Position numbers and translations under genes: made by a program
The notes under the pieces: generated by a model
What the model was told of the DNA's origin: nothing
What the model saw: only the letters and a program-made list of their open reading frames with translations
The model's database searches: none
NCBI GenBank assembly: GCA_963934675.1
Contig: CAWVZP010000003.1
Coordinates: forward strand, 1-49,490
Length of the DNA stretch: 49,490 nt
Direction: 5' to 3'
Origin: an uncultured Gammaproteobacteria bacterium
GTDB lineage: Bacteria > Pseudomonadota > Gammaproteobacteria > GCA-001735895
Part shown: piece after piece, positions 7,412-43,063 of the stretch
Layout of the letters: each line of letters opens with the position of its first letter
Position numbering within the stretch: the first letter of the stretch is position 1

Positions 7412-10051
7412 ATGGCAAACGCGACAGCAAAACAACTCTCTGAAGTGATCGGCATTAGTGTCGATAAACTGCTGGACCAATTGAGTGCAGCCGGTGTAAA
7501 CGTTGCGGGTGCGGATGATCCCATCTCCGACGAAGACAAGCTAAAACTGCTTGAGTCTCTTCGAACCAGTCATGGTAAAGCAGAGGAGGGTGGACCCAAG
7601 AAGATTACTTTAAATCGTAAAAGCAAGAGCGAATTAAAAGTGTCTGGTTTAGCGGGTCGTAACTCCACCACTAAAACAATTAATGTTGAGGTTCGTAAAA
7701 AGCGTACCTATGCACGCCCAACGAACGTTGAGCCTAGAACGGAAATTGAAGTTAAAATTGAAGCCGTAGCTGAAGCGCTAATGGTTATTGATGTCGAGGC
7801 AACCCAAAGTGTTGAGCCAGTAGAAGAAATTGTAGAGGTAATTGATCCAGTTGCTTTAGCCGCTGCTAAAGAAGCCGAAGAAGCCGCTGTTCGTGAAGCG
7901 GAAGAAGCTCGGCTAGTTATGGAGATTGAGCATAAGGAAGCTGAAAAGCAGGCCTACTCAAAAAGCCTTAAAGAAGTAGAAGTTGCACAAGAAATAATTA
8001 TTAAAAAAATGGCAGAAGCTGCTGCAGCTTCTGCAGCAGAAGATGCAGCAAAAGCGGCTTTAGCAGAGGCTTCTCGTGCTGCTGCAGCAGCAGTAGCTAA
8101 CGAAGAAAAAAGCGGCAAGCAAGGTAAGCGCGGTGATGATAAGGGCACTCGCTACGGCCGTAAAGAGTTACATGTTAAACCTGGCGGCAAGCAAGGGGCT
8201 GGTGGTCGGAAGCAAAAATTTAAGAAAAGCCGGAGACAGGCTAGCGATCCAAATAACGCGCATGGTTTTGCGATGCCAACCTCACCGATTATTCGTAATG
8301 TCGAAATTTCTGATTCGATGACTGTTGGTGAATTGGCGCAAAAAATGGCAGTCAAAGGTGGTGACGTTGTTAAGGCTCTGATGCAAATGGGCAGTATGTC
8401 TACCATTAATCAAGTTCTTGATGTTGACACGGCCACAATGGTTGTAGAGGAAATGGGTCATAACGTCATTGCTGTTGTAACTGAAGATGACTTTGAAAAG
8501 AAGTTGTTCGAAAATGTTGCTGAAGCCAGTGAAGATATGGTTGCACGGCCTCCGGTTGTTACAATCATGGGTCATGTTGATCACGGTAAAACCTCTCTAC
8601 TGGATTATATTCGCAAGTCTCGAGTTACGTCAGGTGAAGCTGGTGGCATAACCCAGCATATTGGTGCTTATCATGTAGAAACAGATCAAGGCATGATTAC
8701 TTTTCTAGATACGCCTGGACACGCTGCTTTTTCTGCAATGCGTGCTCGTGGTGCCCAGGCGACTGATATTGTCGTATTGGTTGTCGCGGCAGACGATGGT
8801 GTAATGCCACAAACCAGAGAAGCAGTTGACCATGCTCGTGCAGCTAATGTACCGCTTGTTATTGCAGTCAATAAAATGGATAAAGAAAGTGCTGATCCCG
8901 ATCGTGTTAAGAGCGAGCTAGCAGCGTTAGAAGTTATCCCAGAAGATTGGGGCGGAGAAAATATATTTGTTCCTGTCTCAGCAATAACTGGTGAGGGTGT
9001 TGAGCAATTACTTGAATCAATTTTATTGCAGTCTGAATTACTTGAATTGAAAGCAGCGAATTCGGGCAGTGCAAAAGGTATTGTAGTTGAAGCAACTCTT
9101 GATAAAGGACGTGGTCCAGTAGCTACCATCTTGGTCCAGTCTGGTGAGTTAAAGAAAGGTCAGCTGTTACTAGCTGGCACGCAATATGGCCGTGTACGAG
9201 CCATGTATGATGAGTCATCAAAAGCAATTGATTCCGCTGGGCCCTCTATTCCTGTTGTTGTGCTCGGTCTTTCTGGTGTGCCTAGTGCTGGAGACGAGGT
9301 CTTCGTCGTTGAGAATGAACGTAAAGCTAGAGAATTTGCTGAGGCTCGTGAATCTAAGATTCGTGAAGCTAAATTAACTGACCAGCATAAAACCAAATTG
9401 CAAGGCATGTTTGATGCAATGACAGAAGGTGAGATATCTGAAGTCAATGTATTAATTAAGGCTGATGTACAGGGTAGTGCGGAAGCCATTCGCGAAGCAT
9501 TACAAAAACTATCGACTGATGAGGTGCGCGCTAATATTATCAGTTGTGGTGTTGGTGGCTTAAGTGAATCTGATATTAATCTTGCAGCGGCGTCATCTGC
9601 CATGGTGGTCGGTTTTAACGTTCGAGCCGATACTGCTGCAAAACGCGCAGCTGAAAGTGGTGGTGTCGATATTCGTTACTACAGTATTATTTATGAAGTT
9701 ATCGATATTATTAAAGCCGCTATGTCAGGCCTGCTCGCACCCGAAGCACGAGAGAATATTCTTGGTTTGGCGACTGTAAAAGAAGTCTACAGTTCACCTA
9801 AGTTTGGTGACGTTGCTGGATCAATGGTTGTCGATGGTTTTGTTCGTAAAGGTCTACCAATTCGTGTATTGCGTGACAATGTTGTTGTATATGAAGGTGA
9901 GCTCGAGTCATTACGTCGTTTTAAGGATCCTGTTGAAGAAGTCCGAATGGGCACCGAATGTGGTATTGCTGTCAAAAACTACAATGATGTTCGACCTGGT
10001 GATCAAATCGAAGTCTTTGAGCGAGTTGAAATTTCGCGTTCACTTGATTAA
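7412..10051 (+). CDS. infB: Translation initiation factor IF-2
   Basis: [35 protein letters not shown] and NKMD GTPase motifs. Confidence 0.99.
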
Positions 10052-36859: not shown

Positions 36860-37016
36860 GGGCTGTTCTAGAGATATTTTTCGGGATTGTCTCTCGGCCT
36901 CGAAGCACTTACTGTTGGTTCATCATTACACGGGTGTAACTTATTAGAGCAATGCAGGAGCAATTGCTGAGCGATAAAACAGTCACGAGGAAATACGGCT
37001 ACTTTTAGTGGCGCAC
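36860..37016. mobile_element. Short MITE-like repeat, copy C (between recO and barA)
   Basis: 36931-37020 aligns with the reverse complement of about 40674-40769 (gggtgtaa..attaga.c..tgcaggag.c.attgc.gagcg..aaaacag.cacga..aaat..cta.ttttag); ends GGGCTGTTCTAGAG and CTTTTAGTGGCGCAC-TTAA. Confidence 0.7.
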
Positions 37017-37034: not shown

Positions 37035-39776
37035 TTAACTTCTATTATCCATCTCTTTTAGTAACTGCTGGGTTTCGTTTCGAATGTTGTCTAATTCTTC
37101 ATTGACTTCCAATACGATAGCTTGCTGCTGGCTATTTGAACAGGTCGCTATTGACTTTTGCCACGATATAATTTGTTGTTTTAACCGGGGTAGGCTTGTA
37201 TAGCAGGTAGTGCCATGAAGTTTGTGAAGTATTGCAGATAGCCTTTCCCTATCATTTTTTAATGCAGCAGATTTTAACTGTAGTTGTAAGATAGGTACGT
37301 CGCTAATTAAAATATTAAGAATCTTACGCAGGGTGATTTTGTTGTTTTGAGACAGCTTTAACGACTGTTCGAAATCAATTGAAAGCTTTGAGTCATGACT
37401 ATTTTTGGGGAATTCTTGTTCTTGATTTTGTTCTGTTAGGCTATTACTGATGTGACCTGAGCCATCCAAGATACTGCGAAATTTTTCTTCATCAACGGGT
37501 TTGCTAAGATAATAATTGAAACCTAGTTTCAATAATCTTTGTGGCTCGTCATTAAGAATGTTCGCAGTCATCGCGACAATTGGTGTTTGGTCTAGCGGTT
37601 TTGCACTACGCATCATTTTAAGTAATTGTATACCATCAATCTCAGGCATTTGTATATCGAGAACAATGAGGTCGAAGGAGTCTCTTTGGTAAAGGGCCAT
37701 TGCCTCGAGCGCCTTCTCCGCTTCAGAAACCTGGTGACCCCATAGGCCGATTAGCTCGCTGGCCAATTTAAGGTTTATTTGATTATCATCAACCAGCAAA
37801 ACCTTTTTTGAGGTGACGGGTAAGGAGAATATTTGTGAAGCAGTGGCAATTGTAGTACTTTCATTTTTAGGCCTATTAAGTGCCTTTTTTAAATTATCAC
37901 TGTTGATTGTAGTAGAAATAAAATCTAATTCTAAATTCAATTGCGGTCTAATCATCGTTTGGTCGTAATGCATGACGAGCATATGAGTCTGTTCCATAGA
38001 AATATTGGCCAAGATTTCATTCAAATTTAGGTTGAAATGACGCAAATCAATCGCTAAATAATCAATGTGTTTCAAGTTTTTTCGAATATTTGAATTGATT
38101 GATTCGGCACTATCAGACATAGATATTAACATTGACTCGGTGGCAATCTTTGCTCCGTCAAACAGCGACGTGATTTCTTGTAAACAATTGACCCTACTAG
38201 ATAAAATAAGCGCCAATTTATTATTGCTATGATCTAAGAGATCAGTTTCAACAGGAGATGATGTCAATAAAAACGGTAGGCGTACTGAAAATTTGGTACC
38301 AATCCCTAGTTTGCTTTGCATTGATATCTCACCAGCCATTAATCTAATTAGATTTTTACTGATGACGAGCCCTAATCCTGTACCTGTAAAACGTCGGTTT
38401 GTCGACGTGTCAACTTGGCTAAATGCTTGAAATAGATTTTCCTGATCCTTTTTAGATATGCCTATACCGGTATCTTCAACGGTGATTAAAATAGTGACGT
38501 CGGACTCTGTCTGTTGTTCTACCGTCACTCTGACCATTACCTCGCCTTCATCAGTGAACTTGATTGCGTTGCCTATCAGGTTTAGTAGTACTTGTTTAAG
38601 TCTGAGCTTGTCACCCCAAACAAAACGAGGGGTATCGCTATAAATGATCAAAATAAGGTCAATGTTTTTTGACAATACATTTATAAAAAGAAGATCTCTG
38701 GCTTGTTGAATAGTTTCGTAGAGGTCGAAATTGTCATCGACTATCTGAAGTTTTCCCGATTCCATTTTAGAAAAATCTAGAATTTCACTGATGATATCAG
38801 TTAAGTCATTGGTCGATTTAAGGATGATATCTGCGTATCGCTGTTGGGTTGGGTTTAAGTCAGATTGGGACATCAAGTTAATGAAGCCTTTTATGCCATT
38901 GATAGGTGTTCTTATTTCATGACTCATATTAGTCAAAAAAATAGATTTTATTTTGTTGGCATTTTGAGCTTCATCTTTGGCGAATTTGAGTTCGCTATTT
39001 TTACCCTTAAAATCATCAATTACGTCGCTTAATTGTTTCGTGGCGAACAGAACCTTATCATTCAAATCGTTTCTATTGTTTAGTAACGCCTCAGTCATTT
39101 GATTAAATCCTTTCTGCAATTTACCAATTTCATTGCTTTCTAATGACTCAATAGGTTCACCAAGCTGACCATTCTCAACTTTTTTAATATGTTCTAGTAA
39201 TTTGAATATAGGACGAGTAATTCCCCCGCTTATAATCGCACTAAGTATGAGGGCAATAAATAGAATTGAGATGAAAAAAAATATTGAACGATAGAGTATT
39301 TTTTCTTTTTCTTTTTCAAGTTGTTTACGAGAGATATTGAGGTGTACCCAACCAATTATTCGATTTTTTTCGTCGTAGTTGTGATCAGGCTTGAACACAT
39401 CAGGGTCGTGAATACTTTGTGTGATAATGGGTAAACGATAGTAAAAATAATTGGCAGTTTTTTGGGGGTCGTATTCGATCGAAATCGATAATGCAATCGC
39501 CTCACTATTTTCGTCATATACCGATGCGAATATAACCGCATTTGTATTTATAGTTTTGTTAAGTAAGCGTTGAATTTGACCATAATTACCTGAAAGCATA
39601 TTAAATTCAGATGCACCAGCGAGTTGTTTGGCAATAATTTGGCCTTTGCTTTGAAGAAGGTTGTATGCCTGGTCGACATTATTAGTGAAGTGGGTGTAGG
39701 TAAAGAAAACGTCAACTAACAATGCTGGAATCAGTGCGATGAGAAATATTTGATACTTGATACCCAGTTTTTTCAT
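37035..39776 (-). CDS. barA: Hybrid sensor histidine kinase, BarA/GacS type
   Basis: Two TM helices with periplasmic domain, HAMP, FLTNMSHEIRTPING H-box, N/G boxes, degenerate plus intact receiver (LDIQMP), HPt LHKLHG; near cysM/rlmD as gacS is in other gammaproteobacteria. Confidence 0.85.
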   Translation of the reverse strand: MKKLGIKYQIFLIALIPALLVDVFFTYTHFTNNVDQAYNLLQSKGQIIAKQLAGASEFNMLSGNYGQIQRLLNKTINTNAVIFASVYDENSEAIALSISIEYDPQKTANYFYYRLPIITQSIHDPDVFKPDHNYDEKNRIIGWVHLNISRKQLEKEKEKILYRSIFFFISILFIALILSAIISGGITRPIFKLLEHIKKVENGQLGEPIESLESNEIGKLQKGFNQMTEALLNNRNDLNDKVLFATKQLSDVIDDFKGKNSELKFAKDEAQNANKIKSIFLTNMSHEIRTPINGIKGFINLMSQSDLNPTQQRYADIILKSTNDLTDIISEILDFSKMESGKLQIVDDNFDLYETIQQARDLLFINVLSKNIDLILIIYSDTPRFVWGDKLRLKQVLLNLIGNAIKFTDEGEVMVRVTVEQQTESDVTILITVEDTGIGISKKDQENLFQAFSQVDTSTNRRFTGTGLGLVISKNLIRLMAGEISMQSKLGIGTKFSVRLPFLLTSSPVETDLLDHSNNKLALILSSRVNCLQEITSLFDGAKIATESMLISMSDSAESINSNIRKNLKHIDYLAIDLRHFNLNLNEILANISMEQTHMLVMHYDQTMIRPQLNLELDFISTTINSDNLKKALNRPKNESTTIATASQIFSLPVTSKKVLLVDDNQINLKLASELIGLWGHQVSEAEKALEAMALYQRDSFDLIVLDIQMPEIDGIQLLKMMRSAKPLDQTPIVAMTANILNDEPQRLLKLGFNYYLSKPVDEEKFRSILDGSGHISNSLTEQNQEQEFPKNSHDSKLSIDFEQSLKLSQNNKITLRKILNILISDVPILQLQLKSAALKNDRERLSAILHKLHGTTCYTSLPRLKQQIISWQKSIATCSNSQQQAIVLEVNEELDNIRNETQQLLKEMDNRS

Positions 39777-41068
39777 TGTGACAACTCGTTTAATCTGTCG
39801 GTTATTTTTTCTTCATTGGGTAGATTGATGCCGAGCGCACGAGCCACTCTGCTATTTACCTTGATTGAAAAATATTGTGCAAATTGGATGATTGGCTTGG
39901 TTTGCTGGCGCTTAACGATTAAATGTTTGATAACAGATGCTAGTTGCAAACCTATGTCTGAAGGTGATGAAAATATTGAGGCCAGTGCCCCGGCTTTAAC
40001 ATGTGAAGGTGAATAACTGACGATGGGTTTTCTACTGCGATATGATGTTAGCAAAATACCTTTGAGCGTATTACTATTATAGATATTGTCGTCGGGCAGT
40101 AATAAAAAAGCATTATTATTTTTCAACAGTTGCCTGACTGTTGTTAATAAATTGGTCTGTTTCTGAAATTCATATTGTTCAAGTTTGAAGTGAAATTTTT
40201 CGAGTATATCTTGCTGTTTATTGTTTAGCATTAATTTGTCTGAGCTAACGATACCGACCGAACTAGGCTGCAACATCAGAGCAGTGAAAGCTAGATATCG
40301 TGATAATGGTTGGTCGAGTAAAACTAGGCTGTGATGTTTAAGTTTGGCCTGATGTCGTTGCTTTTGATTTAATGTGAGATAAGCGCTGACTATATTTTTA
40401 GTGTCATATCTTCTAGCTATTTCAAGAGCAGCATCAATGCCAAGAGTAATAATGATGTCGCTGGCCTGTATTTTCTGGTGTTGGGTGTTAACGGTATCAG
40501 CGTTAATGACCGTTACTTGGAAAGCGTCACCTAATTCACGACTTAGACTTTGATTAGTTTGTTTAAAGTAAGAATTATCATTGCTCTGGATAACGCTAAT
40601 TTGTACATTGGCTGCCGTGAGTGGCAGTAGTAGGCTCGGGACTACTAATAGCAATCCTAGTAAAAGTGGTTTATTAACGGGTGACTCTAAAAATAGTGAT
40701 TTTTTCGTGGTCTGTTTTTTTGCCGCTCGGCAATAGCTCCTCCTGCAACGTTCTAATTTCTTACACCCCCGTAAAAAGGCACTAATAGAAAGCGCGATGT
40801 GGCGAAACAGGCTGGCATACATGTCACTCATGGCAATAAGTTTAAGGACACCGAGTAAACATCGAGTGGAGAATCTCAATGTACGTGAAGTACATGAGGA
40901 TCGACCGAGCTGGCGCACCAGCACAGAGCTAATGTATATGGATGCTTGGTATATTGATTTTGCATGAACACAAAAATCAGTGAAGCTTGGATTACGGAAA
41001 AATTGCATTTTTAGATATGCCTTTATGTAAAAAGCCAGCCTCCTTGCTGAATTTTTCCTTATTCCCAT
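39773..41068 (-). CDS. Periplasmic ABC-type substrate-binding-like protein (orphan); codons about 16-130 derive from an in-frame repeat insertion
   Basis: Hydrophobic signal h-region PLLLGLLLVVPSLLLPLTAA; LLLPDDNIYN, YSPSHVKAGALASI and VNSRVARALGI resemble ABC_sub_bind-type proteins; ATGA overlap with the kinase. Confidence 0.75.
   Translation of the reverse strand: MGIRKNSARRLAFYIKAYLKMQFFRNPSFTDFCVHAKSIYQASIYISSVLVRQLGRSSCTSRTLRFSTRCLLGVLKLIAMSDMYASLFRHIALSISAFLRGCKKLERCRRSYCRAAKKQTTKKSLFLESPVNKPLLLGLLLVVPSLLLPLTAANVQISVIQSNDNSYFKQTNQSLSRELGDAFQVTVINADTVNTQHQKIQASDIIITLGIDAALEIARRYDTKNIVSAYLTLNQKQRHQAKLKHHSLVLLDQPLSRYLAFTALMLQPSSVGIVSSDKLMLNNKQQDILEKFHFKLEQYEFQKQTNLLTTVRQLLKNNNAFLLLPDDNIYNSNTLKGILLTSYRSRKPIVSYSPSHVKAGALASIFSSPSDIGLQLASVIKHLIVKRQQTKPIIQFAQYFSIKVNSRVARALGINLPNEEKITDRLNELSQ
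40679..41021. mobile_element. MITE-like repeat, copy D (inside the 5' end of the binding-protein ORF)
   Basis: Imperfect TIRs GGGTGACTCTAAAAAT..ATTTTTTC and GAAAAATT..ATTTTTAGATATGCC; internal GGCAATAGCTCCTCCTGCAACGTTCTA and ATGTAC-gtgaa-GTACAT; homologous to copies A-C. Confidence 0.75.
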
Positions 41069-41074
41069 TTTCGA

Positions 41075-43063
41075 TTAAAACCCGCTACTAAGCCTTAAAA
41101 AAAAGATTTTTTCTGCAATGTTTTCTGGCCTGTAATCACTGTATTCTTCAAGTAAGTTTTGTCCAATAATCTCGATCTGTGTGTTACCTTCCTGAGAAAT
41201 GGTGTAAGCGTAACGTAAGTCCAGCTTGTTGAATGCAGGCCGGACTGATGCGCCCTGTATCCATCGCACTTCGTCCAAATAATAATAAGATGTCGAAACA
41301 TGATGTCTGTCACGTAAATGATAACGCATGTGCAGAAATCCTGTTTTCTCCGAAAAGGAAGCCGCATAGGTGGTTACATTCGATTCTACCTCAATCAGAC
41401 TGAGGCCAGTCTGAAATGTCAGTCCGGTAATCGGATGGTAATCGAATGATAGTTCTACACCTGACACTTGGCTTTTGCCACTATTGATATAAGTTTGCAC
41501 GGCCTGATTTATCCCCAAGGTGGCGTGGGGTACCTCGATTTTGGTATTGATGATCTGGTCAGAGATAGTATAAGTGAATAGTTTGATATCACTGCCTATG
41601 CTGGCATGACTCAGTTGACTGCGTAGCCCAATCTCGTAAGAAAGGATATTTTCAGGCTTGATGTTCGGATTACCTAGGTTAAGTAAAATATCGGCCTGAA
41701 CCGGTCCAGCACCCGGCACGGTACCGCTAACGGTGGAAACCGAGTGAGCAGAAACCTCAAAGAAAAGTGGGTTTCGCTTTGCCTTCGAAATGACAAGGCG
41801 TAATGCATGCTCACTAGACATGTTTCGGATTATAGACAATCTGGGTGAATATTCGAGCTCAGTCAAGCTGGAGTTTTCTACCGATGTCCCAAAATCAAGC
41901 AGCCAGTTCTTGTTAATGCGCCACTCAACACCACCGAAAAATCGACCTGTGTTGACATAGTGAGGCTTGTTTTCCTTATCAAGTAAGGGTGACTGAATTC
42001 TGTCATGCCTAAATCCAGCACCATACACCAGTCGCAGGGCTGAAGAGAACTCTTCGGTTAGTATTACCTCAACATCAGTTCTGTCTGACTTTCTACTTTC
42101 GTCGATGAGTGCAACCGCATTAGGAACTGGACCCAAAGCAAATGGGAGTGAATTATATTGATCGGCCACCTCTTGCAAAGTATGCGTCAACTTTAAAATA
42201 GTATTGGTGGTATCGCCAACGGCCTCCCATTGCAAGTTGAAGTAAATATTGGTGGATTCCTGTTCTCGTATTCCATTCCCTACAGATTTGTGGCTACCTG
42301 TACCTGCCGTGCTGTCACTGCCACCCAACTGAAACGTCCAGAACTGATTATGGGCAGAAACCAGGTCAAGACGAAAGTTGGCAGTATTGATTTTTTTACT
42401 GTCGTGGACATTAATAAAGCCCTCATCGTTTCGGGTGCCAGCACTGAGACGCCAGTCTAAATCACCAACATGGTAACCGTGCCGGACATAAGCATCTTTA
42501 ATGTTCGGGTTAGCATTGTCGCTGGCGGTGACTGAATAACGCGCGTCAATATCTTCGGCGGCGTCTCTGGTGATAATATTAATAGTAGCTAAAAAGGCGT
42601 TTGCACCGTAGGTTACTGCGTTTGGGCCACGAATTACTTCAATACGTTCGATATCTTCAATTAATAGCGGTAAGTTTGACCAAGGGATTCCACCAAATGA
42701 AGGGACAAATACTGATCGACCATCAATTAAAACCTGCATTTGACGTTCATATTGTCCACCATTGCCGTGGTAGCTGACGACAGGAGTATTACCATTTAAA
42801 AAGCCCACAATAAAGCCCGGTACCAGGCGAAATAGCTCCGATACGTCACGAACGCCAGAGGCTTCAATAGTGTCCCTATTAATAATACTGACTGTAGCAG
42901 GTGCTTCAAGTAGGGGTTTACTCATGCGTGAAGCGGTTAGTACGAGCGGTCCATCTTCAAAAAAATCTGAACCAGCAGAGGTATTTATGTTTGAACTCCA
43001 TAATGGTGAAGAACAAATCAGCAAAAAAGCACAGTTAATAGTATTAAAATGACGAAAATACAA
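41075..43063 (-). CDS. TonB-dependent outer-membrane receptor
   Basis: Signal peptide, VLTASR TonB-box region, plug (LFRLVPG; IERIEVIRGPNAVTYGANA), beta-strand pattern, NLL, terminal Phe. Confidence 0.92.
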   Translation of the reverse strand: MYFRHFNTINCAFLLICSSPLWSSNINTSAGSDFFEDGPLVLTASRMSKPLLEAPATVSIINRDTIEASGVRDVSELFRLVPGFIVGFLNGNTPVVSYHGNGGQYERQMQVLIDGRSVFVPSFGGIPWSNLPLLIEDIERIEVIRGPNAVTYGANAFLATINIITRDAAEDIDARYSVTASDNANPNIKDAYVRHGYHVGDLDWRLSAGTRNDEGFINVHDSKKINTANFRLDLVSAHNQFWTFQLGGSDSTAGTGSHKSVGNGIREQESTNIYFNLQWEAVGDTTNTILKLTHTLQEVADQYNSLPFALGPVPNAVALIDESRKSDRTDVEVILTEEFSSALRLVYGAGFRHDRIQSPLLDKENKPHYVNTGRFFGGVEWRINKNWLLDFGTSVENSSLTELEYSPRLSIIRNMSSEHALRLVISKAKRNPLFFEVSAHSVSTVSGTVPGAGPVQADILLNLGNPNIKPENILSYEIGLRSQLSHASIGSDIKLFTYTISDQIINTKIEVPHATLGINQAVQTYINSGKSQVSGVELSFDYHPITGLTFQTGLSLIEVESNVTTYAASFSEKTGFLHMRYHLRDRHHVSTSYYYLDEVRWIQGASVRPAFNKLDLRYAYTISQEGNTQIEIIGQNLLEEYSDYRPENIAEKIFFLRLSSGF

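Follow-up and report, generated by a model that had tools for sequence, protein, structure and literature searches.

Mobile repeats of the MITE type lying in frame within genes are already known, and the pertinent parts of the published accounts name the Rickettsia palindromic elements (RPEs), the ERIC/RU elements and the QMITEs (PMC10969869, PMC2759123, PMC5896051). According to the sections of the source dealing with them, RPEs are about 150 bp long, are very often intragenic, encode a conserved peptide in each of their families, and are thought to occupy surface loops of the finished protein (PMC10969869). In Yersinia pestis, the section devoted to YPO1552 describes an RU-2 element that forms the N-terminal end of the short leader of this small hypothetical protein (Delihas 2007, PMC2759123). 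As for Coxiella burnetii, the passages on QMITE1 report an element of 300–400 bp with variable direct repeats of 2–3 nt and about 50 copies, which often overlaps annotated ORFs and carries sigma-70 promoters (PMC5896051). The locus analysed here is a clear example of this known kind of event, i.e., an in-frame intragenic MITE as in the case of the RPEs, and not of a new kind. Full-text literature searches brought up no signal peptide that had existed before and was then split by a MITE, even though published cases may exist.

The window, i.e., the whole stretch of DNA that was analysed (49,490 nucleotides), belongs to an uncultured gammaproteobacterial genus of marine, brine and sea-ice settings. 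At least half of the sampled words of the stretch are found in 13 runs, the whole or a part of it in 19 rows from 15 studies, and the runs holding it are labelled as marine, brine and ice metagenomes. Three adjacent genes on its minus strand are concerned: a TonB-dependent receptor gene (41075–43063; 662 aa, with the Pfam domains Plug and TonB_dep_Rec_b-barrel), a binding-protein ORF (39773–41068; 431 aa), and a hybrid histidine kinase gene (37035–39776; sCache_4, HAMP, HisKA, HATPase_c, receiver and Hpt). The receptor ends in SSGF, as in its orthologues; its stop is separated from the binding-protein ATG by only 6 nt, and the binding-protein stop and the start of the kinase gene share 4 nt. 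So close a spacing gives the three genes the appearance of a single compact operon with the binding protein in the middle.

The ABC-type periplasmic substrate-binding fold of the binding protein (PF04392, ABC_sub_bind) is located in the C-terminal part of the ORF, at residues 287–418 (37.8 bits against a gathering cut-off of 25.9), and the orthologues likewise carry it. The N-terminus of the same ORF shows a basic stretch followed by a stop-free repeat and then by a Leu-rich hydrophobic core with an Ala-Ala end. On the minus strand, codons 1–15 (41024–41068) comprise the ancestral ATG (41066–41068) and the basic n-region, recognised by their homology to the unfilled N-termini of the empty-site alleles of genomes G054 and G071, of the proteins P0004–P0012 and of distant orthologues. 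Codons 131–153 (40610–40677) hold the rest of the signal peptide, i.e., the hydrophobic core and the cleavage-type Ala-Ala end, on the basis of Kyte–Doolittle hydropathy and conservation in the orthologues. Codons 154–431 and the stop (39773–40609) correspond to the mature periplasmic part, identified by the PF04392 match and by the dN/dS analysis. An AlphaFold2 model of the 431-aa protein (10-row alignment) reached a mean pLDDT of 34.5 and was discarded as unusable.

The repeat lies at 40678–41025, its extent being given by the gap against the empty sites, by the alignment of its inverted ends (TIRs) and by the family copies. Aligned to two empty sites, it runs from the second base of codon 15 to the first base of codon 131, i.e., 116 codons or 348 bp. 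An earlier reading of the window (the sequence-only reading) had placed in the signal peptide a repeat of about 343 bp and about 114 codons, preceded by the basic n-region and followed by the core. The copies and the empty sites bear out the arrangement, and a repeat of about that length is present, its size being corrected to the values given above. In G017, the other genome with the insertion, the block measures 345 bp, both lengths being multiples of three. A target duplication of at most 3 bp (CAT in G017) is possible at the insertion site and is included in the 348 bp; no target-site duplication of consistent length was found in the flanks of about a dozen other copies. The ends of the window copy, which had been described as TIR-bounded, do align in inverted orientation over about 23 nt (one of 500 shuffles reaches the score), but only imperfectly; they are cleaner in the copies on contigs C18, C165 and C87, whose scores were reached by none of 500 shuffles.

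Further copies are widespread in the same draft genome: the stretch 40640–41100 matches 12 places, a more sensitive blastn search gave 14 additional matches on 13 other contigs, and for a 16-nt end motif 80 occurrences were counted, the reversed-sequence control giving 20. Aligned to each other, the copies disclose a modular family with common ends and variable inner modules, those with both ends ranging from about 113 to 350 bp. Of 60 other genomes from the genus, 25 contain matches to the 348-bp element, against none of 18 genomes from three sister genera of the family; among the genomes searched, the matches thus point to a repeat family confined to this genus, and its two most conserved modules also match many unrelated metagenome contigs. 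At the 15 places checked in the window genome, the repeat is in frame within a gene at this one only and lies otherwise outside genes. The family itself appears to be undescribed.

The element is shorter than about 600 bp and has no transposase gene, its sole long frame being that of the host gene. Searched against 1.84 billion representative proteins, its peptide matched three small proteins and no transposase, and these three are wholly other copies of the repeat, open in the same frame. The sequence-only reading had considered that the segment might turn out to be a single-copy, conserved protein domain; what was found is a genus-wide repeat. No transposase-sized pair of ends that might represent a parent insertion sequence was detected in the draft genome, which is 83% complete and of a kind in which repeats often stay unassembled; the long-spaced pairs of ends enclose ordinary genes. 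No Rfam family matched 40500–41200 at E ≤ 1, and a structured-RNA reading of the element finds no support, the fold of the region being no more stable than that of shuffled sequences (z = −0.33).

Some other copies deserve mention. A partial second copy, corresponding to the right half of the repeat, is located on the plus strand at 36896–37013 (nhmmer E = 1e-6), just past the end of the kinase gene and in the opposite orientation to the signal-peptide copy; the genes for the binding protein and the kinase thus have a copy on either side. In the same genome (G000), the copy on contig C87 (3948–4197) lies directly upstream of a pseudouridine-synthase-like gene, and its end, together with one flanking base, forms an ATG that opens a 265-codon frame into that gene; a second N-terminal fusion is possible there, though the usual start of the gene follows the element. 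A copy of the repeat end is also present on contig C6 (7462–7500), a few hundred bp downstream of recA (7837–8622). Lastly, the first codons of the binding-protein gene (41050–41072) show 78% complementarity, along 23 nt, with a subterminal part of the element that follows some 45 nt further downstream (40982–41004). The two might pair in the mRNA at the start region, or the complementarity may be due to chance in A/T-rich sequence.

The comparison with relatives bears on the position of the repeat with respect to the coding region. An alignment of orthologues had been proposed as a way to the empty site, which was indeed found in two congeners, G054 and G071, where the parts of the gene that flank the element are matched and adjoin each other directly. 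In the four-way alignment, the receptor stop of both is followed after 6 nt by an ATG, homologous to that at window position 41068, and then by a basic n-region running straight into the core. Mostly the same kind of N-terminus is seen in the unfilled proteins P0004–P0012 (83–67% identical, 305–317 aa), and the distant orthologues L016, L023 and L025 (about 40% identity) start with M-x-G-I a few nt past the receptor stop. It had been conceived that relatives without the repeat might start the gene at another codon; G054, G071 and these three orthologues share instead the homologous ATG. Since the empty-site relatives start at this upstream codon, the repeat can be placed, on the strength of the alignments, within the ancestral signal-peptide coding region and not in an intergenic one. 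The family is present elsewhere in both congeners (15 matches in G054 and 12 in G071), so the empty site is not explained by its absence from these genomes. The filled site is found at the same place in the window genome and in G017, the closest species in the genome set (88% protein identity). As had been noticed from the letters, the ORF offers no ATG or GTG in frame after the repeat has ended and before the hydrophobic core begins; the core itself contains one TTG (codon 139).

The same junctions are carried by independent sequences: a contig of 1889 bp from a run of another study (X2) spans 40400–41300 with two differences, and the insertion recurs in the independent genome G017 and in a JGI metagenome contig, L053, the single locus returned by the metagenome-contig scan. 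The junctions are not an assembly artefact. Two contigs from RNA libraries also fall on the locus, X15 record 2 (40853–41002, eight differences, allele-like) and X16 record 7 (41043–41192, seven differences); DNA carry-over is possible for both, so that they are no evidence of transcription, of its strand or of 5' ends.

Three further observations concern the relatives. The orthologue of G071 (L036, on contig C177, starting at reverse-strand position 1449) is open for 85 codons only, owing to a stop or a frameshift, which may mark a real pseudogene or an assembly error. Genome G054 contains a second match to the binding-protein gene (C22, 14179–14405; 77% identical) about 4 kb from the first, which suggests a tandem paralogous locus. 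P0011 and P0085, close relatives of the proteins of this organism, bear the name Polaribacter sp. in the MAG records of NCBI, all the other relatives being labelled Gammaproteobacteria; they probably derive from mis-binned contigs.

The insertion is present in three lineages, i.e., that of the window (P0001 and L053), that of P0002, and that of G017. In the window lineage (99% identity for P0001 and L053) the whole frame is open, L053 having 431 codons and seven nucleotide differences; P0002, 93% identical, also has 431 aa and a frame open from the ancestral ATG (the clusters of P0001 and P0002 comprise 17 and 8 sequences, respectively). In G017, codon 58 (40895–40897, minus strand), a Ser codon in the window, has become TAA by one substitution, and the sole indel between the elements of the window and G017 is one of 3 nt. 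The sequence-only reading had regarded the gene as unbroken, which holds for two of the three lineages; in the third, the nonsense codon closes the frame that begins at the ancestral ATG. The lengths called for this one gene are diverse (431, 344 and about 314 aa).

The window copy contains no stop in the frame of the gene, against 2–11 stops in each of the other five frames. Stop-free sequences were obtained in only 25 of 20,000 mononucleotide shuffles of 348 nt (mean 6.4 stops), and the open frame is beyond chance for this sequence. Part of this openness may be intrinsic to the repeat family, because 4 of the 30 frames of five other full-length copies are stop-free and so are the small proteins encoded by other copies. 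None of the 20 variants listed in other samples creates a stop.

Selection was assessed by comparing the window with G017 through Nei–Gojobori counts obtained with our own script. In the 278 codons of the mature part, dS is 0.141 and dN 0.055 (dN/dS 0.39); 34 of the 58 changes are non-synonymous, where 78% would be expected (p = 7e-4). No stop or frameshift occurs in these 278 codons in any of the four alleles (window, L053, P0002 and G017), and the comparison with the empty-site relative G054 gives a dN/dS of 0.23–0.26. This pattern indicates that the mature part is under purifying selection and that the gene stayed useful after the insertion. The element (113 codons) has instead a dS of 0.231 and a dN of 0.141 (dN/dS 0.61; 34 of 49 changes non-synonymous, p = 0.14), with values of 0.75–0.79 in the control frames, so that by these counts its peptide is indistinguishable from neutral, with no visible constraint. 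At the nucleotide level, the two genomes are 85% identical along the element and 93% along the mature part. The neighbouring genes have a dN/dS of 0.25 (receptor) and 0.11 (kinase), both below that of the mature part.

Along the same comparison, the synonymous divergence, which is 0.12–0.14 in the receptor and binding-protein genes, reaches 0.53 over the initial 500 codons of the kinase gene (window 37035–39776 against L015, 2406–3905). This step suggests that a recombination event had its boundary close to the point where the binding-protein and kinase genes meet; a more recent exchange between the lineages may have involved the segment with the receptor gene, the binding-protein gene and the element.

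The product encoded by the entire frame would possess the features of a Sec-type leader, in that composition and hydropathy fit, and the core and Ala-Ala end are common to the orthologues. Codons 1–16 have a net charge of +5; the insert contains 21 Lys and Arg against 4 Asp and Glu (net +17) and six Cys, and the 30 residues ahead of the core have a net charge of +8. Within the first 175 residues, strong hydrophobicity on the Kyte–Doolittle scale is limited to residues 134–150. It is known that positive charges tend to stay on the inner side of the membrane (positive-inside rule). The positive charge ahead of the core fits this rule, for which reason the core should keep its N-in/C-out orientation, with the Ala-Ala end accessible to signal peptidase.

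On these grounds, the explanation that we prefer, and to which we would give an even chance, is that translation proceeds through the element and that the resulting long leader is cut at the retained signal-peptidase site. A non-autonomous MITE-like repeat of about 345 bp inserted itself into the coding sequence of the signal peptide and separated the n-region from the core. The block being a multiple of three and free of stops, translation from the ancestral ATG, whose initiation is probably coupled to the receptor stop, would continue through 116 element-encoded residues into the core. The extra residues would act as an oversized, cytoplasm-facing n-region, the core would insert N-in/C-out, and signal peptidase would cut after the Ala-Ala end, leaving the mature protein unchanged. 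An unchanged mature protein would explain how at least three lineages came to tolerate and inherit the insertion. In G017, after the later nonsense mutation, either translation would restart within the element, at one of its own ATGs, or the gene would have been lost recently. The stricter proposal that the 431-residue form is made, and that a leader of 153 residues, three quarters of which are element-encoded, is recognised by Sec and cut off, appears to us plausible, if somewhat short of an even bet.

Several data speak against translation through the element. The mature part is intact in G017 in spite of the stop at codon 58, and for P0003, the same allele as G017 (found on six contigs), the gene was called from a Met further inside; the cell can thus do without translation from the ancestral ATG, at least now. 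Moreover, the element peptide bears no sign of selection on itself, the repeat family has stop-free frames in appreciable number, targeting could suffer from the 133 residues, six of them Cys, that precede the core, and the dN/dS of the mature part exceeds that of both neighbours.

The main rival to read-through is that translation restarts at an ATG within the element, at codons 80/83 or, depending on the allele, at 87/91, producing a leader of about 70 residues, with the upstream frame as a decaying leftover. This possibility, which we consider rather unlikely, would account for the conserved and intact mature part of G017 behind a closed ancestral frame, as well as for the start called in P0003. 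Two candidate starts, the in-frame ATG codons 80 and 83 (40820–40831, minus strand), are kept in all three insertion lineages, although the retention of two ATGs at 7–15% divergence is expected by chance. The dN/dS, which is 0.98 in element codons 17–57 and 0.46 in codons 59–131 (p = 0.06), also points in this direction. However, no Shine–Dalgarno-like motif precedes codons 80/83 on reading the sequence, and a simple consensus scan found no sigma-70-like promoter on the gene strand of the element (one was found in the 3' end of the receptor gene). A restart also gives no reason for 116 stop-free codons whose length is a multiple of three, an openness reached by so few of the shuffles.

It is less probable still, and in our opinion improbable, that the insertion inactivated export or the gene itself, the open frame being the young relic of a slowly decaying pseudogene. 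The nonsense codon of G017 and the dN/dS of the mature part, higher than in the neighbouring genes, would agree with such a decay, and the apparent truncation of the G071 orthologue at 85 aa suggests that members of the genus can lose this gene. Nevertheless, the element has diverged by 15% since the insertion, while the mature part still has all its 278 codons free of stops and frameshifts in four alleles, non-synonymous changes fewer than under neutrality, and a low dN/dS against the empty-site relative. Finally, a merely intergenic repeat with a downstream start, a native single-copy domain and an assembly artefact are refuted: the family is found in frame within a gene only at this one of 15 places, which would suit the first, but the empty-site orthologues use the upstream ATG and no ATG or GTG follows the repeat, the segment is repeated across the genus and missing from the orthologues, and independent contigs and genomes share the junctions.

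If translation does run through the element into a cleaved leader, a cleavable signal peptide would represent a safe landing pad for a selfish repeat in a needed gene, at no cost for the finished protein. A basic, Cys-rich leader fragment of 15 kDa would be released, which could gain a role of its own, e.g., in the timing of export or in the coupling of the three-gene operon.

Few in-frame insertions of mobile repeats have a clear before-and-after record. Here, it consists of the empty sites of congeners, three inheriting lineages, one later nonsense codon and a mature protein under selection. The site, between the charged n-region and the core of a signal peptide, belongs to the part of a secreted protein that is discarded, and it raises a testable question, i.e., how much extra sequence a bacterial Sec leader can carry ahead of its core. 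In addition, a repeat family of an uncultured gammaproteobacterial genus is documented, and the three lengths called for one gene represent a warning for annotation.

In extended signal peptides, such as the ESPR of autotransporters, a long N-terminal extension precedes the n/h/c unit of a Sec leader; it is native, conserved and of about 25 residues, whereas the extension in the window has 116 residues, derives from a mobile element and is not conserved.

As for the mobile elements, QMITE1 and the window element, compared by description, are similar in size, in the short or absent target duplication and in copy number, to judge from the sections of the source that give these traits; a simple scan found no sigma-70 promoter in the window element, unlike what those sections state for QMITE1, and the two hosts differ in lifestyle (PMC5896051). 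The likening to RPEs that the sequence-only reading had made, as an in-frame and coding-compatible insertion, is a fair working comparison. The relevant part of the source describes RPEs as short non-autonomous repeats placed in frame in genes that stay open, and the same can be said of the window element (PMC10969869), which lies within an ancestral coding region, is a multiple of three and has no stop, one of the three lineages having been stopped later. A conserved family peptide and a habitual intragenic placement are instead missing (4 of 30 frames open, 1 of 15 places, near-neutral dN/dS). With respect to RPEs, again compared by description, the window element is longer (about 345 bp), has a modular build and encodes no conserved peptide, and the insert lies in a part of the protein that is expected to be cut off. 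Among the closest known cases is also YPO1552, whose account, in the section dealing with that locus, comes without an empty-site orthologue having the same leader (PMC2759123). In the window, in contrast, a pre-existing and conserved signal peptide has been split by 116 codons, with empty sites preserved in relatives and the insertion inherited by three lineages.
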